Positions 1,284-37,175 of a stretch of 64,000 nucleotides of DNA are shown here, in pieces. The position numbers and the translations under genes were made by a program. Location of the stretch: positions 5,437 to 69,436 of the forward strand of contig SXRM01000036.1 of assembly GCA_005792545.1 (NCBI GenBank), in the 5' to 3' direction. Source of the stretch: Pseudomonadota bacterium. Lineage in GTDB: Bacteria > Myxococcota_A > UBA9042. Below the pieces are notes generated by a model. The model searched no databases, had not been told where the DNA came from, and saw only the letters and a program-made list of their open reading frames with translations. Position 1 is the stretch's first letter. Each line of letters starts with the position of its first letter.

Positions 1284-1363
1284 CGTTGCATTTGTCGGGA
1301 CGCCGCGGCACAATGGGCGACGGCAAGTCGAAAGTGATCAACAACGCTTAAGTATCGATAGCA

Positions 1364-1393
1364 ATTTCATGCACCTGAACAATGGGGGGGATC
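1364..1393 (+). promoter_or_regulatory. conserved 5' element copy 1 (ATTTCATGCACC-TGAACAATGGGGGGGATC); function unknown
   Basis: The 18-nt core at 1376-1393 is identical to 3897-3914 and 17/18 to 35318-35335(-). Over 30 nt it is 27/30 identical to the minus-strand copy. It contains the ATG (1382) of the kinase ORF. Confidence 0.6.
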
Positions 1394-3769
1394 ATCCAAG
1401 TCCTTGGAAAAGTCTACGCCGACCGCTATCGGGTGGTCGGCCACATCGGCTCCGGTGGCATGGGCGACGTGTTCGCGGTCGAGCACACCGTGCTGGGCCG
1501 GCGATTTGCTTTGAAGCGCATGCAGGTCCACGGGGCAGAGCATCGCGTGGCCGTCGAGCGCTTCTTGCGCGAGGCTCGCGCAGCAGCGGCGACTGGCCAC
1601 CCGGGCGTGGTCGAAGTGTTCGACCTGGGCTTTGATGGCGACGGAAATCCGTTTCTGGTCATGGAGTTGCTTCAAGGCCAAAGTCTGCGTGAACGTCTGC
1701 GGGTCGGGCCGCTGCTGCCGCAGGCGCTGCTGCCGCTAGCCGAGGGCATTCTTGAGCCGCTTGGTGCCGTCCACGCAGCCGGTATCGTGCACCGCGACCT
1801 TAAGCCCGACAACGTGTTCCTGGTGCCGCAGGGCAGCCGCGGTTTTCGAGTCAAGCTGCTCGACTTTGGCCTGGCGCGCACCGACGACGGGGCCGATCAG
1901 CAGCTGACGCAAGCCGGTGCGGTGCTCGGCACGCCGCTCTACATGGCGCCGGAGCAGGCGCGCGGCGAGACCGTGGACTCACGCACCGACCTCTACGCCG
2001 TGGGCGCGATGCTGTACGAAGCGGCGTGCGGCAAGCCGCCGTTTCGCGGCGCCACCTACGCGGCGATCCTCGGCCAGATGTTGACCACCCCGGCCGACCC
2101 ACTGCCGCTGGGGCCGCTGTCGCAAGCGTGGCGTGCGACTATCCTGCGGGCCTTGGCCAAAAAGCCCGCCGACCGGTTTGCGACCGCCGAGGCCATGGCG
2201 GCGGCGTTGCGCGGCGACGGGTTCGCGGAAATAGAGCCCTACCTGGCTGCGCCGAGCGGTGCTCAAGTGGTGGTCATCCGCGGCGCGGACCCGACGACTG
2301 CGGTTGACGTCACGCTGGATGGCAACACGCCGGCGCCGCCGACTGCCGACTTCGCGCCGACGCTGGATTCGTCGGTCGGCGTTGCGGCGCAGCCGAGCAG
2401 CCTGCCCGGAGCGCTTCCCGACGTCGAATCACTGGTCCAGTCCGGTCAAATCGATGCGGCGCAAGAGCGAATGCGGCGAGCTGCGCTGCGCGCCAAGGGC
2501 GACTTCGACGTACAGGCACGGGCTTGTCTGCTCGAACTGCTGGGCAAACGCGATCGCGCCTACAAGTCGGCGGCCGCGCTGGACCAGGAGCAACTTGGTC
2601 CGTGCGCTCGTGCAGCCATCGACGGGCTGCTCGCGCTGCGCAACGGGGTGCCAGCCTTGGGAATTGCTCCGGTCGCCGCCGCCTGTGCGCGTTGGCCAGA
2701 CGATGCAATGCTCGGCTATTTGCACGGTCGACTCTGCCTCGAAAGCGACCAGTTCGAGCGGTCCCGCCAGGTCTACGAAGTGCTGCTGACACGCTGGCCG
2801 GCATTTGAGCCTGCCGTCAATCGCCTGCTTGAGCCCCTGCTGCTCCGCGACGAAGTTCAGGCGGCAGAGGATCTCGTCGACGCGTACATCGCAAACGCTC
2901 CCGATGGCGCCGAGCTCGACATGCTCGAAATCGAGCTCTGGGTCGGTCAGCACCGCTACACCGAGGCTCTAGACCGCATCCGGCGCGACATGACGGCCAA
3001 TCCGGCGCGCGAAAAGGAGTTTTTTCGCTTGCTGGGCGACGTCCTCGTCCTGGTCGGCGATCCGGCCGGGGCGATTGCGGCCTATGACCGCATCGAAAAG
3101 CGCGAACGGCGCGACAATTGCGTGCTGGGTGCGCTCTGGCAATTGGGGCGCCATGACGAGGCCCGGGCGCTGCTGGCGGACGCCATCGCCAGCTACGACG
3201 CCGACAACGACGCGCGTGTCTCGCGGCTGGGAACGCTTTGCCTGGATGCCGCGCTGTGGGCGCTTGAGACTGGCGACGCGGGCCTCGCGGCACTGGTCGC
3301 GGAGCGGTTGCGAGGCGTGACTTCGGCGGCGACTGAGATGCGCTTTTCGGGCGACCGGGCGTTTTGCCTCGCGGCGGCAGCGCAATTTGCGGGCCGTAAC
3401 CCGGATTTCGGGCTCTTGCGAGACGATAAAGGGCACCCCTTGGTGGCACTACTAGACGCGCGGCGGGATCCATCGCGTGCGGTCGCGCTGCTTGGGCCTG
3501 TCTGCGCTCCGGCAGCCATTCGCGACGGCACCGTCTCCAGCCATGTCCTACCGGTGTTGTGGGCCGACTACGGGTGTGCGCTGGTCGCATATGGGCGTCC
3601 CAGGGAAGCGCTTGCCTGGCTGGATCGGGCGCTGCGGCCACGCCACTTCGAGCCCACGCGCGGCATCGTCTGGCGGCGGGCGACTCAGGCCAAGGTCGCC
3701 GCGCTGCAAGCTTTGGGACGACCCGGTGAGGCCGCGGCAGTCGCACGAGCGCTTGCCGCCGGTGCATAA
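1382..3769 (+). CDS. Hanks-type Ser/Thr protein kinase with C-terminal TPR-like helical-repeat domain
   Basis: GSGGMGDVF glycine loop, ALK, HRDLKPDNVFL, DFGLAR and GTPLYMAPEQ motifs. About 480 aa of helical repeats follow, with no TM helix seen. ATG 1382 has no SD and lies inside the conserved element. The next in-frame start (GTG 1433) would cut into kinase subdomain I. Confidence 0.85.
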   Translation: MGGIIQVLGKVYADRYRVVGHIGSGGMGDVFAVEHTVLGRRFALKRMQVHGAEHRVAVERFLREARAAAATGHPGVVEVFDLGFDGDGNPFLVMELLQGQSLRERLRVGPLLPQALLPLAEGILEPLGAVHAAGIVHRDLKPDNVFLVPQGSRGFRVKLLDFGLARTDDGADQQLTQAGAVLGTPLYMAPEQARGETVDSRTDLYAVGAMLYEAACGKPPFRGATYAAILGQMLTTPADPLPLGPLSQAWRATILRALAKKPADRFATAEAMAAALRGDGFAEIEPYLAAPSGAQVVVIRGADPTTAVDVTLDGNTPAPPTADFAPTLDSSVGVAAQPSSLPGALPDVESLVQSGQIDAAQERMRRAALRAKGDFDVQARACLLELLGKRDRAYKSAAALDQEQLGPCARAAIDGLLALRNGVPALGIAPVAAACARWPDDAMLGYLHGRLCLESDQFERSRQVYEVLLTRWPAFEPAVNRLLEPLLLRDEVQAAEDLVDAYIANAPDGAELDMLEIELWVGQHRYTEALDRIRRDMTANPAREKEFFRLLGDVLVLVGDPAGAIAAYDRIEKRERRDNCVLGALWQLGRHDEARALLADAIASYDADNDARVSRLGTLCLDAALWALETGDAGLAALVAERLRGVTSAATEMRFSGDRAFCLAAAAQFAGRNPDFGLLRDDKGHPLVALLDARRDPSRAVALLGPVCAPAAIRDGTVSSHVLPVLWADYGCALVAYGRPREALAWLDRALRPRHFEPTRGIVWRRATQAKVAALQALGRPGEAAAVARALAAGA

Positions 3770-3804
3770 CGGCAGCGGCGAAATTGCCAGTAGTTTTAGA
3801 CTCC

Positions 3805-3825
3805 TGAACATTGCGGGGATAGATC
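3805..3825 (+). promoter_or_regulatory. degenerate copy of the conserved 5' element (TGAACATTGCGGGGATAGATC)
   Basis: Same order of boxes (TGAACA, TG, G-run, GATC) as the core element. Lies 92 nt upstream of copy 2, in the same intergenic region and on the same strand. Confidence 0.4.
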
Positions 3826-3896
3826 CGCCTCCCCCCGCGGCCGCCGCGCGGAATTCGGCAACACGCCAGGCGATTAACCGTGTGTTTAAGCAGGCT

Positions 3897-3914
3897 TGAA
3901 CAATGGGGGGGATC
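3897..3914 (+). promoter_or_regulatory. conserved 5' element copy 2 (TGAACAATGGGGGGGATC); function unknown
   Basis: Identical 18-mer to 1376-1393. Lies 71 nt upstream of ATG 3986 of the giant lipoprotein gene. A TGG-TATCTT extended -10-like box (3957-3965) starts 45 nt after the element. Confidence 0.6.
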
Positions 3915-3985
3915 GTGTAACTGCGCAAAAAGCGCCTTCCGCGCCACCGACTTGCGTGGTATCTTGCCCGCCCACCGAGGCCCCC

Positions 3986-6900
3986 ATGCATGACCGCGCT
4001 GCCCACCTTCGCCATCACGCTCCGACGCGCACCGTCCTTGCCCTACTACTGGCGGCGTGCGGCACGGACCCGGTCAGCAAGCCGGCGCCAGCCAGCGACG
4101 CTGCAACAGCCCAAGTCGATACGGACGTCGCAGCGGCAGACCTTGCCAGCCCCGAGGTCGCGTCGCCCGATGTCGCCGTCGACGTGCCCGACCAGACGGC
4201 CCGTGCGCCGGACGACAGCGTGTCGGCTACCGACGTAGCAGTAGACGGGCCGGCAATCCAGGACCTTGGGTCCGACGTCCCACCGCCGCCCGACATCGAC
4301 GCTGGACCGCCGTGCAAATCCAACGCCGACTGCCCGTCGGCCACCGAGCCCTGCACGGAGTCGCGCTGCGAGGCCAAGCTCGGCTACTGCAAGTTCGTCC
4401 AGGCGCTGGACGGCGTGCCATGCGATGACGGCGAGTCGTGCACGCTGGGCGACAAGTGCAAAGCCGGCCAGTGCCTCGCAGGCAAGCCCGGCTGCAACTG
4501 CGCCAAAGACGCCGACTGCGCGGCGTTTGACGACGGCGACCTGTGCAACGGCGCTTGGGTCTGCAACAAAGCCCAAACGCCCAGCGTGTGTGCCGCTGCT
4601 CTGGGCACCAAGGTTGTGTGCGCGGCGAGCGACTCGCCGTGTAGCGCCAACGTCTGCAACCCGGTGTCCGGCGCCTGCGAAGCCACACCCACCAACGACG
4701 GCGCGGCGTGCGAAGACGGCAAGATCTGCACCAGTGGCGACCTGTGCAAGGGCGGCAGCTGCGTGGCCGGCAAAGACGACTGCCCGTGCAAGAAGAACGC
4801 CGACTGCGACGACGACGGCGACGCCTGCAACGGCATCCCCTACTGCGACAAGAGCGAACTGCCTTGGTCGTGCAAGATTAACGCCGGCACCATCGTGTCG
4901 TGCAACAAGGGCAGCGACACCGCCTGCGTCGCCAACAAGTGCAACCCCAAGACCGGCACCTGCGCGCTCACGCCCATCAACGAAAGCGGCAAATGCGAAG
5001 ACGGCGACCCGTGCAGTGGCAGCGACTTCTGCAAGGCCGGCACCTGCGCAGCGGGCGTCAACCTGTGCGGCTGCAACACCGACGCCCAGTGCAAGCAGTA
5101 CGACGACGCCGACCTGTGCAACGGCACGCTGTTCTGCAACCTGACCACCAAGCCGCACCAGTGCCAGGTCAACCCCAAGACCGTAGTCGTGTGCCCCAGC
5201 GTCGACGACACCGCCTGCACCAAGAACCAGTGCGAGAAGTCGACGGGCAAGTGCGGATTCGTACTCGCCAAAGATAGCAGCCCCTGCAACGACGACAACC
5301 CGTGCACCACCGACGACTACTGCAAGGCTGGCGTGTGCACCGCGGCGACCAACATCTGTCCCTGCAACGCCAACGGCGACTGCTCGACCAAAGACGACGG
5401 CAACCTGTGCAACGGCACCCTGTATTGCGACAAAAGCAAGGTGCCATACACCTGCGCCGTCAACCCGGCCACCGTCAAGACCTGCCCAAATGTGGACAAC
5501 ACGGCGTGCCTCGCCAACCTGTGCCAGCCAAAGACCGGCGCCTGCACCATGACCTCAGTCAACCAGGGCGCAGTGTGCGAGGCCGACGGCAATCCCTGCA
5601 CGGTCGGCGATGTCTGCGAAGCCGGGGCGTGCAAGACCGGACCCAACAACTGCCCCTGCAACCAGGACAGCGACTGCAAGGCCCAGGAAGACGGCAACCC
5701 GTGCAACGGCACGCTCTATTGCCAGAAATCGACCAACACCTGCGTGCTGAACCCCAACACCATCGTGCAGTGCGGCACGCTCGGCGACACCTTCTGCGCC
5801 TCAAATCAGTGTGACCCCCAAAGTGGCAAGTGCGCCTTGGCGCCGCGCAACCAGGGCCTCGCTTGCGACGCGGACGGCAATGCCTGCACCCAAGGTGACG
5901 TCTGCGACAAGGGCAAGTGCCTGGTCGGCACCAACACCTGCGGCTGCCAGGCCAACGCCGACTGCAGCAAGTACGAAGACGGCAACCCCTGCAATGGCAC
6001 GCTCTATTGCGACAAGGCAACGCTGCCTTTCCAGTGCAAAGTCAACCCGGCCAGCATCAAGGACTGCGGAACCGGCGTGCCCAAGCCGTGTCAGGTCTGG
6101 CAGTGCAACCCCAAAACCAATGCCTGCGAGTATTTCCCGGGCACCGACGGCGTGCCCTGCGAAGACGGCGTGGCGTGTACCGTAGGCGACGTCTGCCTCG
6201 GCGGCAGCTGCAACAAGGGCAGCAACCTGTGCGGTTGCCAAAAAGACGCTGACTGCGCGAACGGCGAAGACGGCAACCTGTGCAACGGCCAGCTGTACTG
6301 CGACAAGAGCAAGGTGCCGTATCAGTGCAAGGTCAACCCGTATTCGGTGGTGGTGTGCCCAACTGTCGCCGACACAGACTGCTTGTTCAGCCAGTGCGAG
6401 CCCAAGACTGGCCTGTGCCTGCCGACCGCGGCCACCGAGACGGGCCCCTGCAACGACGGCGACGCGTGCACGGCCAACGACAATTGCAAGAAAGCCGAGT
6501 GTGTCGGCGCGCCGCTCAAGTGCGACGACGGCATCGTTTGCACGTTTGACGCATGCGATCCGGGCTTGGGGTGCGTAGCCATTGCCAATGCCGCGGCTGC
6601 CTGCAACGACGGCAACGTGTGCACCACCGACACCTGCGACATCAAGGCGGGCTGCGCCCACACTGCGGCCCAGGGAACGCTCACTTGCGACGACGGCGAC
6701 CCATGCAGCGGCCCCGACGTCTGCAATGCCGGCAAGTGCGGCGGCGCGAAGAGCGGCGGCTGCGACGACGGCAACCCCTGCACCGACGACGCGTGCGCGC
6801 CAGGTGGCGGCGCGTGCTTGTTCACGCCGAACACCAAGTCGTGCGAGGGCGACTTGCGCTGCTCCGGCGGTGTATGTGGCGGCTGTCGTGCGTTCGGCCG

Positions 6901-9900
6901 GCCGCTGCGCGTCGGTTGCGACCTGGTCGAGCCCTGGCCGTATTATCCAGAGAATGCGCTGCCGCCGCACCCGCCGCTGGCCAGTCAATGCGAGCTCCCG
7001 GGCAACAAGGGCCTCGAAGAGGGCGAAGACGCGACGGAACTGTCTGATGGGCGTTTGCTGGCCGTCGGGGCTGCAGCGCTCGATGGCGGCACGGCAACCT
7101 TGGGTTGGGTGCAGTGGTTTCTGCCGGGAGGCAAGTGGCTGCAAGACCAAACGTACGGCAAGGCTGGCGTTGCCCGCTTTCTGGGGGCTGTCGCTGCCCC
7201 GGCTGGCGGCGCCTGGCTGGCAGGCATCCATGCGGATACCGCGAAGGTGCCGCGGCCTTGGTTGGTCAAGGTCGATGCACAGGGCAAGGTCGCCGCCGAG
7301 GTCGTGCTGCCGGCCAGCGCGACCGATGCTGGGGCGGTGGCCCAATTCGAAGCGGTCACGTCCACCTTGGACGGTGGCTGCATCGCAGTCGGCTGGACGC
7401 AGGGCGCCAAGAACACGACCACCGATGCCTTGGCCGTGCGGTTCGATGCCACTGGGACCGTCGTTTGGACCACAGTCATCAACACGACGACCGCCAATCA
7501 GACACCGCAGAGCGAGAAGTGGCACGCCATTGCGGGCAGCGCCGACGGCCAGTCCTTCGCGCTTGCCGGCCAGCGCGGCAACGCCCTAAAACCCGCGAGC
7601 GGCACTGAGGGCTGGCTGGTGGCGCTCGACGTCAAAGGCCAGTGGTTGTGGCAACGCGATCACGGCGGTTCGGGGCACGACGTCCTGTACGCTGTGGCGC
7701 GCAGTCCGACGGGCGGCTGGATCGCAGCCGGCACCCGCGACAAGCCGACCATGAACCAGCCTGGCGATGGCTGGATCCTGCGGACTGACACCCACGGATT
7801 GTGGGTAGACGAACTGACCTTGACCGGCCCCGGCGACGACGTTTTGCGGGTTATCGGCTGGCACCCAAAGAACGGCTGGCTGGCGGCCGGGTCGCAAGCC
7901 ATGAACCTCGGACCGAACGACAAAACCTGGTCCCCGGGTTACGACCGCGGCAAGGCTTGGTTCGTGCGGCTCAAACCTGACCTCACGCTATTGGGCCAGA
8001 CCCACAGCGACTACTACGGCACGGAGACGATCCGCGGCGGCACTGTTCTCCGCGAGGGCGACCTGTGGGTTGCCGGCGACACGCGCACCCACGAGACTGC
8101 GGGTCCGACACCCATCGACAAGCCCGATGGGCTCGCCTTGCGGGTCGACGGCGACACCGGCATCGACAGCTGTCCGTGCAACACATTTGAGCGCATCGAC
8201 GCCACCGCCAGCGGTCCGTCGCGGCTCGAGGGCGTTGTCGTCAGCGCAGCTGGCCAGGCTGGCGTCGTTGGCTGGCAGACAGCAAGCAACGGACTTGCAG
8301 ACGCGTGGGTGCAAACCATGGACGCCGTGGGCAAGGTGCTGAGCAATCAGGTCTTCGGCAAGCTCGGCGACGACCGTCTGTACCACGTCGCGCCCAACGG
8401 CGCAGGCTTTGTCGCTGTTGGCTCGACGGATTCAACCGGTGCTGGCCTCAAAGACGGCTGGGTGGTGCGCCTGGACGCCAACGGCAAGGTGTTGAGCGAG
8501 CACACCTTCGGCGGCAACCTCGACGACGAGCTGTTGCGCGTACATGGCTTGCCCGACGGCAACTGGCTGGCGGTAGGCCGCAGCAAGTCGCAGGCAAAGG
8601 GCGGCTTTGACGGTTGGGCTGTCGCGCTCAAGCCCGACTTCACCATCGCCTGGGAAAAGCGCATCGGCGCCAAGTTTGACGACGGACTGCGCGGAATTGC
8701 GCTTTTGGGTGGCAGCAATGACTGGCGGATTCTCGTCGTCGGCCACTTTGGCTTCGAGCCCAACGCCAACGGCTATCTGGCAGTATGGAAGCCCGACAGC
8801 TCGCCCGCGCTCGACGCCACGGGCAAGAGCTTGGAAACTCAACTTGCTGCCAATGGCACCAAACTTAACACCCATCATCAGCTGCTGCATGATGTTGCTC
8901 GCCTTGGCGACGGCACCGCTGTCGCAACGGGCCACGTTGGTAACGGCGTCATCCTCGGCGGCGCGCCTTGGTACGTACGCATCGATGCCGCAGGAAAGGT
9001 GACCAAAGACTACGTGCTTCCAACCAGCAACGGCGGCGATGTCGGTCGACAGGTTCTGCCGGAAGGCGCCGACGGCTTCGCGGTCGTCGGAGAATGGGCT
9101 GGACCCGGCTACCTGGACGGCGGCGGAGCAGCGTTCGCGGTGCGCTTCAACGGCGCCGACATCTTGCAGGGTTACGTGAACCAGTACGCCACGCCAGCGG
9201 GCAAGTTCGCATATGCAATGGCATTTTCTTCGTTCGCCCGCTTGCCGAACGGCCATTATCTCGCCGTCGGCCACGCCGACAAGGTCAAGGGCGGTACCCG
9301 CTATGGCTGGGCGATGCGCATGGATGCCTACTTGCAGGGTCCAGGCATGCGCTTCAACACGCAGCTGCCCGCAGACGGGAACTGCAGCTCTGTGCGGTGC
9401 GGTCAGTGGTTCCCGGCGCGCTCGCGCAACCATGGCGACGACTGTACGGACGACAACGAATGCACGGTCGGCGACCAGTGCACCGCGGCCAAATGCCAGT
9501 CGCACCAACCCAACCCCTGCGACGACGGCAATCCGTGCACTGCAGACGCCTGTTACGCTGGCCCCGGTTGCACTTCAGAGCCAACCAACGACGGCAAGAC
9601 CTGTGGTACAGACTTGCTGTGTGGCACTGGCAATTGCGGCGGCAAGTGCCTGAACTTACTCAGCGCGACCGCGCCGCTACCCAAACACGAGCAATACGTC
9701 CGCGCCGTGCCAGCGCAAGGGGGCGGTTGGTGGGTAACCGGCCAGTCGCGCGCCATCAACATCGACGCCGTCCACCCTTTCGATGCCTGGGCCGGCAAAG
9801 TCGACGCCACTGGCAAGCTGGCGCCGTTGTTCGAGTCTGGCCTTGGCAGCTACAACGACTCGCTCGATGCCGTTGTGCCAATGCCCGACGGCAGCGTTTG

Positions 9901-25996: not shown

Positions 25997-28584
25997 TCAC
26001 GTCCCGTTGCCCCACGGATCGAGCGCCAGCACCCAGGCGTTGGGCACAGTAAACCCGGTCGCCGTGTTGCCACCGATTAGAATCGAACCATTGGGCGACA
26101 CCGCGATGGCAGCGAATGCGTCATTGGCCGCACCGCCGAAGCTTTTGTCCCATTGAATGTTGCCCAACTTGTCGACCACGAAAAGCCAGGCGTCGTCGCT
26201 GGTTTTGCCCTCGGTGCCGGACCAACCGGCAATCGCGACATCGCAGCCCTCCAGTACCGCGAGCGCACGAGCGTAGTCTGCTCCGACGCCGCTATAGGTC
26301 AATTCGTAGAGCTGCCCGCCGTCTTTGTTGAGCACTATGATCCAGGCATCAAGCGCCCCAGCGCCCTTGCTCGCCCTCGCGCCGACGACGACAAAACCGC
26401 CCGCCGGCAAGGGCTCAATCGCATACAGATAGTCATTGGCGTCCCCACCGTAGTCCCAGTTGTACGAGGCCTGACCGGCTGAGGTCCAAAGCACATCTTG
26501 TCCTGCAGCCCATGCGAGGTCGGGTGCGTGTAGAACCCGGCGGTGAAGTAGTCATTTTGTTGGCCGACGACGACGCCCTTGCCAAAGGTATTGTTGCCAC
26601 CTCCGCCGCCCCAGGCCGTTTGCGACAGCGGCGAAAGGTCGCCTGACAGCCGAAAAAGGCCCATGTTGCTCAATCCCTGGCTGACGTAGCCGGTGGCCAC
26701 AAAGCCTGCTGTGCCTGCGTCGGCGCGCAGGTCATAGACGCCGGAGTAGTCGCCAAAGTTGTTGGTCTTGGTCGCAATCGCATTGCCTGTGCCGTCAAAG
26801 CGCACGTAGAGTTGACTCGGCACGCCGCCCACTGGCGTACGTACCCCCGCAACCACCAACGTCTGGTCCGGCGCCACCACCGCGGCGTTTAGCCCGTCGC
26901 TGGTATTGCCGGTGATGAAGGTCTTCCACAGTTCCTTGCCGGTCGCGTCGTACTTGGCGGCAAAGCCATCGTAGTCCGCGACTTTGGCGTAGCCGACCAC
27001 GCCGACGCTGCCGTCTTGAAACGCTACGACGTCGGTCACCCACTGGTTGCTGGCACCCATCGCGGCGAATTTGCTCTCGAACAGCTTGCCTTTCTGACCC
27101 GACGTACAAACCCCGTTCTGGCACTTGTCGCCGATGGTGCATGCGCCGGCGTCGCAAACGGCCCCTGTTGCGGGCGCGGTGGCGCAGCCCTTGGCCTTGT
27201 CGCAGCTGTCGGTGGTGCAGTCGTTGCCGTCGTCGCACAGGGTCGGCTTGCCGCCGATGCACTTGCCCTTGTCGCAGCTGTCGCCGCTCGTGCAGGGGTT
27301 GTTGTCGCTGCACGCGGCCTTGTTTTGGGTCGCGGTGCAGGTACCGCCGGGCTTGATGCAGCTGTCGTCGGTGCAGGCGTCGCCGTCGTCGCACTTGGCG
27401 GTGTTGGGCAGGTGGGCGCAGCCTTTCTTGGGGTTGCAACTGTCGGCGGTGCACTCGTTGTTGTCGTCGCATGCCAGCGTGGTGCCGGGCTTGCACACGC
27501 CGCCCTCGCAGCCGTCGCCGTCGGTACAGACGTCGGCGTCGCTGCAGGTGGCCTTGTTGTTGGCGGTCGTGCAGCCCTTGACGCCGTTGCAGCCGTCGGT
27601 CGTGCACGGGTTGCCGTCGTTGCAGTCCTGCAGGCTGCCGCCCGAGCAGAAGCCGCCGGTGCACAAGTCGTCTTTGGTGCGCGCGTTGCCGTCGTCGCAT
27701 GCCTGGCCGAGCACGGCGTTGTGCTCGCAACCGATCTTGATGTCGCACGGGTCGGCGGTGCACGGGTTGCCGTCGTCGCAGTCTTGCGTGGCGGTTCCTG
27801 GCAGGCATGTGCCCTTGCTGCACACATCGCCGACCGTGCAGACGTTGTCGTCGCTGCACGGCGCCGTGTTCAGGGCATGGACGCACACACCGTTTTGGGT
27901 GCAGCCTTCGGTGGTGCACAGGATGCCGTCGTCGCAGGCGCCGGGTGCGTTGGGCAGGCACTCGGCGGCTTTGCAGTCCACGCCGCAACTGGCTGCATTT
28001 TCAGAGTTCTGCGCGCAGGTGCTGCAGATGCCGTCGCCGCAGTAGCCGCAGTCGGTCGGGCAGTTGCTCCAGTCTTCGTCCTTGTCGCAGGTGCAGTTGC
28101 CGCAGCCGGGCTTACAGTCCTCCGGGCAGCCCTTGGGGCCGCCGTCGTCAGGCTCGCAAAAGCTGTTGCCGCAGGTCTTGAACTTGCAGTCTTCCTTGCA
28201 GGTGACCGGCGACTCGCCGGGCTCGCACTTGCCGTTGCCGCACGCGGTCGAGCAGTCCTTGGCGCACGACGTGGCCGATTCGCCGCACGCAAAGCCCTTG
28301 CACTGCCCGTCGCCGCAGGTGCCGCAGCACTCGGTCGGGCACACCGTCGGGCCCTCGCCGGCCGAGCAGGTGCCGTCGCCGCACGCCGCGCAGTCCAGTG
28401 GGCAGGTCGTCACGTTCTCGGCGCATGCGGCGTTGCAGTTCTTGTCGCCGCAGGCGCATTGCGCGGGTAGTTGTGCTACGTCGATCTTGGCTGCGTCCGT
28501 GGCCGGTGTGGTTAGGTTTTCGTCGCCGCCGCAACCGGCGACGGCGAGAGAAGTGGCCACAGGTGGCAGGGCGGTCAGGCGCAT
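25997..28584 (-). pseudogene. Cys-rich module + 7-blade propeller-repeat lipoprotein, apparent frameshift near 26495-26530
   Basis: ATG 28584 has GGAGG 7 nt upstream. The lipobox is LAVAGC. CGDG.C and CDDGNPCT.D.C modules are present. The reading frame of ORF 26335..28869 decays after ...GFYTHP, and the propeller repeats continue in ORF 25997..26494 (DLAWAAGQDVLWTSAGQ...). A 1-nt indel at the CCC/GGG run near 26522 would restore the frame. Confidence 0.75.
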
Positions 28585-32199: not shown

Positions 32200-35103
32200 C
32201 TACGGAGTTGCGCAGAAATCGCCGCCGGTACCACCGGCAGTCGCGGGAGCGTCGATGACGGCCGCGCCCTCGTCGATCGACAGCAGGAAGTGCACCAGCT
32301 TTTGCACGATGGCCGCCTTCTTGGCCGGATCGGACTCTTGCAAGAAGTTGGCAGCAAGCGCTGTGTGGTGCTTGTCGAAGGTCGCGCTGAACAACGACTC
32401 CAGCGTCCGCGCGTTGCCCGCGTGCAGGTACGGGCCACCGGTCGCCACGCCCAGCAGACTCGGCGGGTTGTAGCCGTTGCCGTCCACTTCGGCGCCCTGA
32501 CCCGGCGTCTTCATGTCTGCGCGCAGCTCCGCAATGCCTACGCCCGGCTCCGCAACCTTAAAAGTGCCAACCGGGCGCAGAATGCACTGGACCTGGTCCA
32601 GCGCCGCCGGGTTGCCCCCGCCAAAGCGCATGAAGCGATTGGCCACGGTAGCTGCGGGCAGTAGCGACGCCGGAAAGTACTGCGGCGCCGTCCAGGCCTT
32701 GGCCAGCAGCTTCTTGTTGGTGTCGACCGACGGCGCGTAGAACATCTTGCTGATGGTCCACTTGGGCCCGCCGTGGCAGCCAGCGCAATTGGCGTCCTTG
32801 TAGATAGCTTTGCCTTCCGCGACCTTGGTGGCGTCGACGCTGCTGACGCCGCGCGGAGAGCGCAGACCCTGGACGTACTTGGTGATCTCGGCCCAGTCGT
32901 TGAGCACGCTTGGCGGCGTGACCACGCCGGACTTGGGGTCCGCTGCGGCGGCGGCTGAGCCATTGAGGCCCGCGTGGCCCAGCGCGGCGATGTCGATGCG
33001 GTCGGCGGCGCCAATCGGCGGCGTGTTCTTGTGCACAATGGCGCCGACGCCGCCGGAGGTGCCGCGGGTGTTCAGCTCGAAGTCGGCGATTTCGTCGAAG
33101 ACGGCGGTCCAGTTGAAGATGCGCTGGTCCTTGGGGTCCTTGCTGTTGAACGAGCCGTCCAGGCTGGTCGACTGGCGCGGGCCGCGGCCGAAGTACCAGG
33201 TGATGTTGTCGGTCAAGCCGTCGACGTGACAGGTCTGGCACGCATTCCAGGCCTGGCCCTTGAGCGACCAGCGAGCCAGACCGGTGTTGAAGAAGCGCTT
33301 GCCCAGGAGGACGTTGGCCTCTTCGGACCCCGCGGCGGGCAGGTCGGCGGTCTTGGCGACGCTCGGCGCCTGTGGGCCGCCTGCGATTTCCTGGGTGGCG
33401 AAGTCAGCGACTGTGATGTTGCGGGTGATGTCGTTGTTGACGAATGCCGCCTTCTTGTTGACGTAGGGGATGGCGATGCCGGTGGGGCCGCGGCCGCCGA
33501 CCTTGGCGTCATAGGCGGGGTTGGCGAGATCGATGAAGGGCTGCACGCCCGAGCCGACCTCGGCCAGCGTGCCATCGGCGTTCATCTTGAAGCGGAACAC
33601 TGCGTCGGCGCCATTGGCCGTCACGTAGCCGATGTCGGTGTCGGGCACGAAGTCGATGTCGGTCATGACCAGTGGCAGGCGCCGGGTGTTGTCGTCGGCC
33701 AGCTTCTTGTCGTCAAAGAAGGCCACGAACTTGGCGTTGAGGTTGAAGGCGTGCGCCTGTTTGTCAGTCTTGAGGTCCACGATCGACAGCACGTTGCCCA
33801 TGGCGGTCTTGGTGCTGGCCTGGTTGGGGTCGCACTTATTGGCGTTGCACTTGCCGCCAAACGCGCCGCAGTCGGTGTCGGCCGCGCAGTTGGTGGTGCA
33901 CTTGCTGCTCGCGCACGACCCGGCGACCTTGCCGGGGCAGTCGTCGTCTTTGGTGCAGGCTGCCGCGGCAGGGCCAGTGAAGGGGCCAATCGGACCCTTG
34001 GGCGAGGCGCAGATGCTCGATACCAGCGCCCAGGTGCCGTGCACCGTCACCGCTTGCAGCTGGTTCGGGTAGCAGCCGGCGACGTTGCCGAGCTGATCCT
34101 TGAAGCCCATGTCGGCCAATGCCGGCAGGTCGATGACCTTGACCGACATATCCTTGCCGCTGATGCGGTAGAGCATGCCCTTGCGCGACACGTCGGCATT
34201 GCTGCCGTCAGCCTTCTCTTCTTGCGCCTGCTGGCTGAAGAACTCGGTGACCAGCAGCGATTCGTCCTCGTCTACGGCGTCGCCGTTGTTGGTGATCGCA
34301 ATGCTGCGCGGGTGCGCCAGGCCAGGGCGAGCCTGGACGTCGCCAAGGGTTTTGGTGGCAACCAGCGCGGCGTTGAGGTCCACGGTTGCGACGACCGTTG
34401 CGGCCGCGGTGACGACCATCGACACGGTGCCGTCGACCCAGTTGGCGACTGCCAGGTATTTGCCAGTCGGGCTGAGCGCGAGGCCGGTCGGCTCTGAACC
34501 CACGGCGACCGTCGCCCCCACTTTTGGCATCGACTTCAACCCGTCGATGCGGACGGCCTTCTGGTCGGCGCGCAGGATGACCCACGCCGACTCGCTGTCG
34601 GGCATGATGGCGACCTGCCACGGTTCTTTGCCGACCGCGACGTCGTAGGTCTTGGTCAGCACGGTCGGCGCGCCGGCAACATAGGTCGCCTTGAACACGC
34701 TGACGGAGCCGGAGTCGCGGTTGCACGCAACGACGATGCTGTCGTCCGCAGACACGGCAATCGACGACCCGCGGCTGGGTCCGGGTAGGATCTTGGGCGC
34801 AACGGCAGTGTCTGCCGGCGGTGTGTCGGTGGGTGCGACGTCGGTCGCGACCACGTCAGCAACCGCCGTGTCAGGCACCGCGGTGTCGGCTGCCGTGGTG
34901 TCTGCCACGGTATCCGCTGCGGTCTCAGCACCTGTCGCGGTGTCGCCCGCCGCACCGGTGTCACCGCCGCCTGCGGTCTCTGCTGCGGCGGTTTCTGCAG
35001 CCGCATCGGTTGCCGTCGCGCCCGCATCGGTCGCCGCGTTTTCCGTTCCACATGCCGCGAGCGAAGCAAACGCCGCTGCGGCCCACCAGCCGTAACCCTT
35101 CAT
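32200..35103 (-). CDS. YVTN-type beta-propeller + di-haem cytochrome c (CCP/MauG-like) lipoprotein
   Basis: ORF trimmed to ATG 35103 (a G-rich SD-like run lies 3 nt upstream). The lipobox is FASLAAC. YVTN-like repeats are present (VAVGKEPWQVAIMPD, VAVGSEPTGLALSPTGKYLAVANWVDGTVSMV). There are two CxxCH motifs (ACQTCHVDG; NCAGCHGGPKW). Confidence 0.8.
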   Translation of the reverse strand: MKGYGWWAAAAFASLAACGTENAATDAGATATDAAAETAAAETAGGGDTGAAGDTATGAETAADTVADTTAADTAVPDTAVADVVATDVAPTDTPPADTAVAPKILPGPSRGSSIAVSADDSIVVACNRDSGSVSVFKATYVAGAPTVLTKTYDVAVGKEPWQVAIMPDSESAWVILRADQKAVRIDGLKSMPKVGATVAVGSEPTGLALSPTGKYLAVANWVDGTVSMVVTAAATVVATVDLNAALVATKTLGDVQARPGLAHPRSIAITNNGDAVDEDESLLVTEFFSQQAQEEKADGSNADVSRKGMLYRISGKDMSVKVIDLPALADMGFKDQLGNVAGCYPNQLQAVTVHGTWALVSSICASPKGPIGPFTGPAAAACTKDDDCPGKVAGSCASSKCTTNCAADTDCGAFGGKCNANKCDPNQASTKTAMGNVLSIVDLKTDKQAHAFNLNAKFVAFFDDKKLADDNTRRLPLVMTDIDFVPDTDIGYVTANGADAVFRFKMNADGTLAEVGSGVQPFIDLANPAYDAKVGGRGPTGIAIPYVNKKAAFVNNDITRNITVADFATQEIAGGPQAPSVAKTADLPAAGSEEANVLLGKRFFNTGLARWSLKGQAWNACQTCHVDGLTDNITWYFGRGPRQSTSLDGSFNSKDPKDQRIFNWTAVFDEIADFELNTRGTSGGVGAIVHKNTPPIGAADRIDIAALGHAGLNGSAAAAADPKSGVVTPPSVLNDWAEITKYVQGLRSPRGVSSVDATKVAEGKAIYKDANCAGCHGGPKWTISKMFYAPSVDTNKKLLAKAWTAPQYFPASLLPAATVANRFMRFGGGNPAALDQVQCILRPVGTFKVAEPGVGIAELRADMKTPGQGAEVDGNGYNPPSLLGVATGGPYLHAGNARTLESLFSATFDKHHTALAANFLQESDPAKKAAIVQKLVHFLLSIDEGAAVIDAPATAGGTGGDFCATP

Positions 35104-35313
35104 AGTCCCCCCTGCGCGCCACATGAAGTGGCCCAAGCAAGCCGCGCGCGCCCCAGCACTGCGCCCGAAATCGCATCGCACCAAGCGGTGCACCAGCTGG
35201 CGCCGACGGTAACAGGGCCGGGGTGCGTTCGCAAACCTTTACAGTCGCCGTCTAGATAATATGCTGATTATATTCGCTGTTTCAGTGGACGCCGCAGGGG
35301 CACGCCGCGGGTT

Positions 35314-35347
35314 GATCGATGCCCCCCATTGTTCAGGCTCATGAAAT
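35314..35347 (-). promoter_or_regulatory. conserved 5' element copy 3 (ATTTCATGAGCC-TGAACAATGGGGGGCATCGATC); function unknown
   Basis: The minus-strand core at 35335-35318 is 17/18 identical to copies 1 and 2. A perfect TATAAT (minus, 35272-35267) starts exactly 45 nt after the core. The element is co-oriented with gene 32200..35103. Confidence 0.6.
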
Positions 35348-35351
35348 AACG

Positions 35352-37175
35352 ATGGATCCTAGAAAACGCGCTGCTCGCCGGTCGCCGGTCCTCAAGCACC
35401 GCTTTATCCTTGACGCCCTGGCCGCCAAGGCGCACGCTGGCCGCACTGGCCTGTGCTTTCCGAGCCTTTTTTGGGTCGCGCGCGCGCCGTCGCCACCCAA
35501 GGTCGCCGTGCAGCCCGAGACGGTGCATTTCAACGGGTTTGGGTCCAAGTCACAGGCTCAAGCCATTGTCGTGCGCAACCTCGGCGGGTCGCCTCTGCGC
35601 ATCGAGCGCGTCGAACTGATGCTGCCCAGCCACTACAAGCTGGCAGACAACTGGTCATTTCAGCTGACCGGCGGCAATGTCGATTACGCGCCATTGGTCG
35701 TCATTCCTCCCGGTGGCGTTTGGAACCTCAAGTTGTCTCGGACCGGCGGCGACTGGACCGATGCGGGTGGCACGATCCGACTGTTCACCGACGATCCGCT
35801 TGCCCCAGGCCCGGTCAAAATCGACGTTGTGGCGACGCCCTTTGCCAACGCCACGCAGTGCCTGACTTCGCAAGCCGGGTCGATCATCGACTTCGGCCCG
35901 GCGGTTCCCGGGGCGGCGCAAAAGAACTACGTCGTTCACCTCAAGAATTGCGGCGCGGCGCCACTAGTCGTTACCGGCGTCGCCCTTGTCCAAGATCCCA
36001 GCGGATCCGGGCTGTTCGCCATCGATTGGGAACACAGCACCAAAGCCGACGGATCGTCACCGCTCGGTCCCACGCCAACGACCCCGATTGTGGTGCCAGG
36101 CGGTGGTTACGTTGCGCTGACCGTGACTTACGCAGCCCTGAACTTGACACCCGAGACCAATGGCAAGCTGCTCGTCGAGGTCGGCGGTGAGACCTACACG
36201 TTCACTTTGACCGCTCAAAACGTCAAAGTCACCTGCCCGATCCCCATGGTCACGGTCACGGAAGGCGAACAAGTCGTTCCGCAGACGACCATCCACCTCA
36301 AGGGCGACCAGTCCAAGTCGGCCGGCGGTGCGATTACCAAGTACAAGTGGTACGTCAAACAGCCGGCAGGATCGAACCAGGCACTCACGCCCAACGCGAG
36401 CTTTATCAGCCCGTCCCTGCTTGCCAATGCCTCCGGCGAGTACGAGTTTTGCCTCGATGTCTGGGACGCCAGCGGCGTCAAAAGCTGCGCCCCCGCCTGC
36501 GCCTTAGTCCTGGTCATCCCCAACAACGCCATTCACATCGAACTGCTGTGGAACACGCCGGCCGACGCCGACCAGACCGACAGCGGCCCCGCTGCCGGCG
36601 CCGACTTGGACCTGCACTTTGCCCACCCGATTGCCGGGACCGCGGACCTGGACTGCGATGGCAAGCCTGACCCATGGTTCAGCAACCCGTGGGACACCTT
36701 CTGGTTCAACGCAGCGCCCGAGTGGGGCGGCAGCGGCAACACCAAGGACAATCCGACCATGGACTTGGACGATACCGACGGCGCCGGCCCGGAGAACTTG
36801 AACCTCGTGGACCCAGAGGGCACGGACGACGACCCGGTGGCCTACCGTGTCGGCGTCCACTACTGGAATGACCACGGCTTTAGTACGTCGTTTGCCACGG
36901 TGAACATCTACGTCCAGGGCGGCCTGGCCGTGCAGTTTTCCGGCGCCGAACTGCAGGCCCTGGACATGTGGTACGTCGGCGATCTCAACTGGCCCAACGT
37001 GACCAACGGCGGCACCAAGCCGGTCTTTCAGACGTGCTATCAGTCGGGGCAGTCGTGCGCGGCGGGCAAGAACTTGATGTGGGAACCCAAGGGCGAGCGG
37101 TGCATCACCAAGTGCTACAAGAACAAGGTGTTCAACGGCTCGGTGGGCGGGGCGGCGAAGCCGCCGGGGTGTTGA
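35352..37175 (+). CDS. secreted multi-domain protein (two ASH/'choice-of-anchor D'-like beta-sandwiches, PKD-like domain, Asp-rich C-terminal domain)
   Basis: ATG 35352. The signal-like segment is GLCFPSLFWVARA|PS. 'VHFNGFG..AQAIVVRNLGGSPLRIERVEL' and 'IDFGPAVPG..VVHLKNCGAAPLVVTGV' resemble ASH/choice-of-anchor D domains. 'YKWYVKQPAGS...GEYEFCLDVWDASG' is PKD-like. The start site is uncertain. Confidence 0.7.
   Translation: MDPRKRAARRSPVLKHRFILDALAAKAHAGRTGLCFPSLFWVARAPSPPKVAVQPETVHFNGFGSKSQAQAIVVRNLGGSPLRIERVELMLPSHYKLADNWSFQLTGGNVDYAPLVVIPPGGVWNLKLSRTGGDWTDAGGTIRLFTDDPLAPGPVKIDVVATPFANATQCLTSQAGSIIDFGPAVPGAAQKNYVVHLKNCGAAPLVVTGVALVQDPSGSGLFAIDWEHSTKADGSSPLGPTPTTPIVVPGGGYVALTVTYAALNLTPETNGKLLVEVGGETYTFTLTAQNVKVTCPIPMVTVTEGEQVVPQTTIHLKGDQSKSAGGAITKYKWYVKQPAGSNQALTPNASFISPSLLANASGEYEFCLDVWDASGVKSCAPACALVLVIPNNAIHIELLWNTPADADQTDSGPAAGADLDLHFAHPIAGTADLDCDGKPDPWFSNPWDTFWFNAAPEWGGSGNTKDNPTMDLDDTDGAGPENLNLVDPEGTDDDPVAYRVGVHYWNDHGFSTSFATVNIYVQGGLAVQFSGAELQALDMWYVGDLNWPNVTNGGTKPVFQTCYQSGQSCAAGKNLMWEPKGERCITKCYKNKVFNGSVGGAAKPPGC

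Follow-up and report, generated by a model that had tools for sequence, protein, structure and literature searches.

A short interspersed intergenic repeat with a conserved asymmetric core in uncultured Myxococcota related to Labilithrix

Results

An 18-mer recurs beside a kinase gene and two lipoprotein genes

The window, meaning the whole 64-kb stretch of DNA analysed here, holds a Ser/Thr kinase gene, the gene of a 2,258-aa lipoprotein, and a divergent pair of genes encoding a YVTN/lactonase-like lipoprotein (32200-35103, minus strand) and a PKD-domain protein (35352-37175, plus strand). Within it, the 18-mer TGAACAATGGGGGGGATC occurs exactly at 1376-1393(+) and 3897-3914(+), and with 17 of 18 bases at 35318-35335(-). 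When up to three mismatches were allowed, these 3 matches compared with an expectation of 0.03, and 0 of 100 shuffles reached 3, which confirms that the recurrence noticed in a preliminary description of this DNA is real. A looser pattern added the degenerate copy TGAACATTGCGGGG at 3805(+) and no others in the 64 kb. This fourth copy had been listed before, as had the 5' extension ATTTCATGnnCC common to copies 1 and 3 (27/30 identical), and both are present. All four copies lie between called genes, on the non-coding side, and each points at the start of the next gene, as previously described. The copies and the kinase gene are located as follows.

1351..1403, plus strand: copy 1, long form, with A/T patch, ATTTCA box, core CTGAACAATGGGGGGG and 3' extension ATCATCCAAGTCC
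1382..3769, plus strand: Ser/Thr kinase gene, its first seven codons from the repeat; a neighbour of the repeat, not part of it
3780..3818, plus strand: copy 4, decayed, GAAATTGCCAGTAGTTTTAGACTC and CTGAACATTGCGGGG
3872..3921, plus strand: copy 2, with core TTGAACAATGGGGGGG and extension ATCGTGTAAC
35311..35360, minus strand: copy 3, ATTTCATGAGCC, TGAACAATGGGGGG and CATCGATCAAC

The first base of TGAACA in copy 2 (3897) is 89 nt from the ATG of the 2,258-aa lipoprotein gene (3986), and copy 3 occupies the divergent region between the YVTN/lactonase-like and PKD-domain genes. GGCACAATGGGCGACG (1311-1326), which precedes copy 1 by 63 nt, agrees with the core at 10 of 16 positions. On this similarity it is a possible fifth copy, decayed and in tandem with copy 1. 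Compared with a public metagenome contig (ENA ERZ27257032, k141_811694, 79 kb), the window shows 2 differing bases in 13,769; both (1287 T/G and 1306 C/T) fall in the short intergenic DNA just upstream of copy 1.

Distribution within a narrow clade of uncultured Myxococcota

A scan of GTDB with the pattern TGAACAATGGGGGGNATC, using one genome per species, returned 33 loci. One MAG from Lake Tanganyika (VGRO01, labelled 'Deltaproteobacteria bacterium M_DeepCast_65m_m1_011') accounts for sixteen of these loci, on which at least 22 exact copies lie. The Myxococcota MAG CJ01B_8.15 accounts for 2 loci, and the remaining ones are unrelated singletons at about the chance level. A metagenome scan added one more related organism with the repeat (SXGU/SXGT), and contigs with kinase orthologues added a fifth (L035/L036), whose kinase is 83% identical and which carries four copies in 5.6 kb. 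Searching relatives for the 18-mer has thus placed the repeat in VGRO01 and in three further relatives besides the window organism. Among the contigs examined, no copies were found in more distant relatives at 67%, 47% and 41% kinase identity, nor in four contigs (61 kb) at 65-79% identity in the YVTN protein. The names on homologues suggest a lineage near Labilithrix and Polyangia, and the range of the repeat is limited to a narrow, uncultured clade of Myxococcota related to Labilithrix.

Plasmid collections, phage collections and viral contigs yielded no match to the repeat, which is not the end of a known mobile element (IS, Tn or phage). Within the library of papers that was searched, the core sequence appeared in no paper and a description of REP-like repeats in Myxococcota in none. 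Together with the lack of an Rfam match, this upholds the statement that no described repeat or RNA family corresponds to it.

Two smaller points concern individual contigs of these relatives. One repeat copy has a tRNA-Arg(TCT) gene (L023 4839-4915) at a distance of about 140 nt, a layout that is kept in the SXGT organism (L153). On VGRO contig 1, an apparent strand bias of the copies (19 plus versus 8 minus) loses significance once clustering is considered.

The 18-mer is the best-conserved part of a longer element

Alignment of the copies shows that the repeat proper, which is short, interspersed and intergenic, measures about 40-50 bp and that the 18-mer is its best-conserved part. Numbering positions from the T of TGAACA, conservation sets in sharply at -25 with an A/T patch, ARAWW (-25..-21), and after a dip resumes with a wwTCA box (-11..-7); a second dip at -5/-4 is followed by A-y-y (-3..-1). 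The invariant core, yTGAACAATG / TGAACAATG, then leads into a G-tract of variable length, with 7 G in 54 copies, 8 in 11 and 6 in 9, and with single copies that have 5, 9, 10 and 13. After the G-tract, roughly half of the copies carry ATCGTyCAA; the conserved part ends at the G-tract plus about 9 nt, and nothing is conserved further out. Because only this half carries ATCGTyCAA, the terminal GATC, which had been described as a fixed part of the motif, is a subfamily feature absent from the invariant core of the wider family. Copies often occur in clusters of 2-5 at a spacing of 80-150 nt. A 60-nt profile derived from exact copies roughly doubled the copy count within the fetched pieces, which again shows the clustering.

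Copies are intergenic and randomly oriented

For gene calling, a codon-usage model was trained on the long ORFs that these loci contain, and the critical gene strands were checked against Pfam domains (GST, lipid A acyltransferase, MlaD, ThrRS, IMPDH, AcrB and DnaB). Across five related organisms, sampled with a bias in that the loci were fetched using the core itself as search pattern, 81 of 83 copies (97%) lie between genes, although coding sequence makes up 88.7% of this DNA. By a simple binomial the probability of such an excess is near 1e-73, and it is still extreme when regions replace copies as the unit. In these sampled loci, then, the repeat is far rarer inside genes than outside them; equal frequency inside genes was one of the outcomes that the preliminary description had named as refuting it.

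The same description also stated that the element is always 5' of, and co-oriented with, a gene. Over the larger sample this does not hold: of the copies in tandem gene pairs, 18 follow the gene direction and 16 oppose it, a further 18 lie between convergent genes and 14 between divergent genes, and 34 of the 66 classifiable copies aim at the 3' end of an opposing gene. Seven of the copies in convergent regions sit in regions of at most 210 nt, which leave no room for a gene. Element-to-gene distances are alike on either side, and the G-tract lies between -9 and 466 nt from the start codon, with several copies at 1-16 nt. Orientation relative to genes is random, which is what the preliminary description had itself named as refuting the rule; since 83 copies are randomly oriented, the agreement of the first four is a small-sample coincidence. 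These observations show that the repeat is an element at the DNA level, indifferent to the direction of the neighbouring gene, and the sites in the window are no promoter, leader or RNA element of the genes that they adjoin.

The core is held constant at orthologous sites where copy number changes

In 12 pairwise comparisons of orthologous copies, the 15-nt core was identical at 172 of 180 positions (96%), against 142 of 288 (49%) in the -25..-2 part of the same element. The large lipoprotein gene provides the clearest case, as the window, L036 and the VGRO MAG (L029) all have two tandem copies ahead of it, and in a three-way alignment the cores are the sole invariant blocks of this intergenic region. 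The core of copy 2 is identical at 15 of 15 positions at the orthologous site in the three species, while its -25..-2 part retains 5-8 of 24. Copies oriented against their neighbouring gene are retained as well (for example, L002 versus L144) and are as conserved as those that face a gene. Based on these comparisons, only the core of the repeat is under strong constraint.

The number of copies is less stable. Counts at orthologous sites included 3 versus 0, 3 versus 1, and 2 versus 1 plus one decayed copy. Some copies decay, such as copy 4 of the window, the orthologue of which is still intact in L036 and L029, and one copy of SXGU. In the variable part of the element, tandem copies of one species are more similar to one another than to their orthologues, which indicates local duplication or gene conversion. 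The repeat is therefore shown to be both inherited at many orthologous sites and variable in copy number between sister species. Core conservation could also stem from molecular drive or gene conversion instead of host selection.

Copy 1 supplies the start of the kinase gene

The preliminary description regarded the ATG within copy 1 as the only sensible start of the kinase gene, and this proved correct: a TGA at 1376 closes the kinase frame, so that the ATG at 1382 is the earliest possible start. This ATG and the next six codons encode the kinase N-terminus, MGGIIQV (1382-1403). We then compared the window kinase, MGGIIQV-LGKVYADRYRVVG, with its orthologues, which start as MNAPAVHE-LGKVYADRYRVVG (83% identity) and MTATDKPSEMIGRVFAERYRVVG (67%). 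The orthologous kinases begin MNAPAVHE-LGKVY or MTATDKPSEMIGRVF with no repeat there, and the N-termini are unrelated up to the conserved LGKVYADRYRVVG. In a DNA alignment, copy 1 occupies the place of the ancestral kinase 5' end. Furthermore, ATCATCCAAGTCC, which follows the G-tract of copy 1, matches the long-form extension found elsewhere (e.g., GATCGTCCAAGTCC in L060), indicating that the repeat supplied the ATG and seven kinase codons. No Shine-Dalgarno-like sequence lies ahead of the ATG at 1382. The upstream neighbour of the kinase gene differs between the two species, which places copy 1 at a rearrangement junction. As read from these alignments, copy 1 is a lineage-specific arrival, and its role as a start codon a secondary capture of the repeat by the kinase gene.

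Structure, coding and mobility

The downstream arm of the element matches its own left arm at 7.8 of 17 positions, which is no better than the 7.65/17 for the left arms of other copies; shuffled downstream sequence gave 6.9/17. The mean folding z was -0.11 for 79 copies and -0.34 for control intergenic DNA, and RNAalifold on 56 copies predicted 0 pairs. A REP-type hairpin or pseudoknot was rejected, as the TGAAC/GTTCA and GATC/GATC complementarity occurs in a subfamily only and lacks covariation. Inverted arms are seen in only a few copies (L010, L025, L029 and L033). One such site, L010 6810-6960 on VGRO contig 19, has two copies between convergent genes with full 17-bp inverted arms, 15/17 complementary, surrounding a G-tract loop. 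At another site, L028 1219-1265 on VGRO contig 1, in a head-to-head pair of copies the G-tract and C-tract, together with an internal palindrome, give a strong, long predicted hairpin (folding z about -4) downstream of dnaB, and by its sequence this pair looks like a terminator. Rfam gave 0 window matches at the gathering threshold, and three consensus copies produced only chance-level matches (E>1). The RNA element that had been offered as one explanation of the 18-mer thus finds no support from structure or from the covariance-model search.

A leader peptide, also offered, fared no better. ORFs that begin at the motif ATG are mostly 5-80 codons long (range 5-795), are unrelated to one another after MGGI, and lie in random frame relative to the downstream gene. 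Several known signals were likewise compared with the element and rejected. Sigma-54 sites were set aside as the GG/GC positions are not conserved, and a sigma-32-like reading of the reverse strand (CTTGAA..CCCCAT) has a 7-nt spacer instead of 13-15. The Myxococcus LexA box is CTGAAC-N4-GTTCAG, and the repeat contains a half-site only. A tRNA-like or T-loop origin was dismissed, with no tRNA or tmRNA signal in the window.

Mobility was assessed at six back-to-back pairs of copies. The DNA that they enclose (113-223 bp) is unrelated from pair to pair, and direct repeats are lacking at the outer ends of the pairs. These pairs show no terminal inverted repeats, target-site duplication or conserved interior, which rejects a MITE, and a Tn3-like terminal repeat with a GGGG tip was rejected because they lack target duplication and share no interior. 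No transposase was found next to the checked copies or associated with them in the roughly 340 kb sampled. Comparisons of filled and empty sites gave no clean site with defined ends, the neighbouring DNA being rearranged or too diverged.

Discussion

A proposed protein-read core within an intergenic repeat

Our preferred reading, to which we give an even chance when its parts are taken jointly, is that of a REP/BIME-like intergenic repeat whose core is read by a conserved protein and which spreads by duplication, recombination and insertion. Because the core is constant (96%) and the rest of the element drifts (49%), we infer that the non-palindromic core of 15-17 bp is a candidate recognition site of a conserved trans-acting protein. 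The regulator-binding site suggested in the preliminary description is in this respect partly retained, since a protein-binding DNA core seems most plausible from sequence comparison, but the site is not a promoter-side site of the adjoining genes. Three routes would give rise to new copies, namely local duplication, unequal recombination of one copy with another and, now and then, insertion between genes at a new site. What the repeat does to the genes beside it would then be incidental, as where copy 1 replaced the kinase 5' end and gave the gene its start codon.

The 5' half of the element resembles a site for IHF. At offset -11..+1, the consensus WATCAR-N4-TTR (WATCARNNNNTTR) is matched perfectly by 3 copies, with 1 mismatch by 11 and with 2 by 30, so that 56% of copies lie within two mismatches versus 0.3% at control positions; this is a match to a consensus only, and the two commonest mismatches hit specified positions. 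Some 15 nt upstream of the ATCA in this IHF-like half there is an A/T patch, and strong IHF sites often carry an upstream A-tract. The IHF-like 5' half is probably a putative bend or accessory site beside the core.

A further, rather unlikely extension is that the core serves as a genome-wide 'self' tag, either an uptake signal or the site of a chromosome-organising or recombination factor. A dedicated protein would read this tag, and selection or uptake drive would preserve the core between genes at hundreds of sites, even as the remaining element decayed.

Alternative explanations

The alternative that the repeat is selfish, a mobile sequence with no host function such as a REP/REPIN moved by a RAYT-type transposase or a MITE, we regard as unlikely, although several features are shared with such elements: it is lineage-restricted, high in copy number, intergenic-only and clustered, its copy number turns over, and copy 1 is inserted in the 5' end of a gene. 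The repeat is nevertheless not palindromic and does not fold, with arm pairing (7.8/17 own versus 7.65/17 other arms), folding z (-0.11) and RNAalifold (0 pairs) as given above, and the back-to-back pairs are without terminal inverted repeats, target duplications or a conserved interior. Neither a transposase beside the checked copies nor a plasmid, phage or viral-contig match was found. Moreover, in old orthologous copies the core has stayed perfect as the rest decayed, which is unexpected for neutral relics. A promoter or upstream regulatory site of the downstream gene is more doubtful. Under such a model, TGAACAAT would be a -10-like element with an adjacent TG and the G-tract a discriminator, with transcription starting near the G-tract end. 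All four window copies do face a gene start, the two tandem copies ahead of the large lipoprotein gene persist in three species where the surrounding intergenic DNA has diverged, and conservation would span about -39 to +10 if the start is placed at the G-tract end. Against this stand the 34 of 66 classifiable copies that aim at the 3' end of an opposing gene and the 18 in convergent regions, the Pfam matches that upheld the gene strands in the checked convergent and anti-oriented cases, the equal conservation of anti-oriented and gene-facing copies, and the range of G-tract-to-start-codon distances (-9 to 466 nt). Sigma-70 geometry does not fit either, with no -35 element at 17 bp upstream of AACAAT. 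ECF-type promoters have a textbook consensus spacing of 16-18 nt, and the ECF-like arrangements in the repeat, TGAAC-N12-CGT and TGAAC-N15-TCAA, are 3-5 bp too short.

We consider it quite improbable that the repeat is a DNA uptake signal of the DUS/USS type, in which a receptor would recognise the core, uptake-biased recombination would preserve it and A/T tracts at helical spacing would accompany it. This explanation would suit the invariant core and the weaker A/T tracts on one side of it, the occurrence in both orientations and the lack of a transposase, as well as a core kept at orthologous sites while its flanks drift and the occasional inverted pairs downstream of genes (e.g., L028 1219-1265). 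Known uptake sequences, however, are common inside genes, whereas 97% of the copies here are intergenic, and they are denser than the 1 per 2.5-16 kb or so estimated for the repeat. In addition, 25 nt of homologous upstream sequence and the tandem clusters indicate copying and not origin by point mutation. Scarcely credible, finally, is a transcribed RNA element or short leader peptide (MGGI...). The core does hold an ATG, which in copy 1 starts a real protein, but most of the ORFs are 5 to about 80 codons long in random frame relative to the downstream gene, no structure and no Rfam family (at the gathering threshold or E<1) were found, and orientation is random with respect to transcription units.

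Relation to known repeats

The closest match in genomic behaviour to the intergenic repeat with its candidate protein-read core is REP/BIME of enterobacteria and pseudomonads, especially the IHF-binding BIME-1 (RIP/RIB). Both are short, high-copy and extragenic, occur singly or in clusters and in both orientations, lie at gene 3' ends and between operons, and are partly conserved at orthologous sites; as in BIME-1, a candidate IHF site, here predicted from sequence, would adjoin the conserved unit. Unlike REP/BIME, the repeat has neither a palindrome nor a conserved hairpin, and it lacks the GTAG-type hairpin foot. The genes checked near copies include no RAYT gene, and the invariant part of the repeat is an asymmetric 15-17 nt that ends in a G-tract. 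We did not file it as REP because it fails the defining palindrome test.

With Neisseria DUS and Pasteurellaceae USS the repeat shares an invariant asymmetric core, weaker and one-sided A/T-rich flanks, occurrence in both orientations, lineage specificity and preservation of the core as the flanks drift. It differs from them in being near-absent from coding DNA, in its lower density and in that its copies share descent, as seen from homologous flanks and tandem duplications. MITEs, Correia elements (CREE) and ERIC are, like it, small non-coding intergenic repeats that at times alter the starts or promoters of neighbouring genes, and Correia elements also carry IHF sites; the repeat is much shorter and lacks terminal inverted repeats, target-site duplication and a conserved interior.

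The family of interspersed repeats documented here, from a clade of uncultured Myxococcota, is new and non-palindromic. Its description removes a wrong regulatory annotation, as the sites are not a regulon motif that joins the kinase and two lipoproteins. The unusually strong constraint on the short core (96% versus 49% within one element) points to a sequence-specific factor, and the kinase gene is a clear example of a repeat that gives a gene a start codon and seven N-terminal codons. In practice, the repeat can serve as a marker to guide binning in this lineage and to locate assembly break points. Should the 'self' tag reading be true in the form of an uptake signal, it would be the first in Myxococcota.

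Other features near the repeat copies

The adjacency of the kinase and lipoprotein genes is kept in the window and in L036, whereas the lipoprotein orthologue of the VGRO MAG has a different, divergent neighbour. Repeat copies are present at this synteny break (window 3770-3985 versus L029 4583-5031) and at the break upstream of the kinase gene.

Between copy 2 and the lipoprotein ATG, CTTGCGTGGTATCTT (3950-3965) forms an extended -10-like block (TGgTATCTT) that is kept in L036 and not in the VGRO orthologue. Judging by this resemblance, it is a better promoter candidate for the large lipoprotein gene in the window species and L036. Ahead of the YVTN/lactonase-like lipoprotein start (35103), AGGGGGGACT at 35104-35115(-) places a G-run in the Shine-Dalgarno position; this G-run is unrelated to the repeat.

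The gene of the 2,258-aa lipoprotein also gives many staggered, self-like matches to VGRO genes (4292-6939), and a second region of the window (27144-27967) matches those same VGRO repeats. On the evidence of Dicty_CTDC hits, the large lipoprotein and the 27144-27967 region are predicted to be internally repetitive, paralogous surface proteins.
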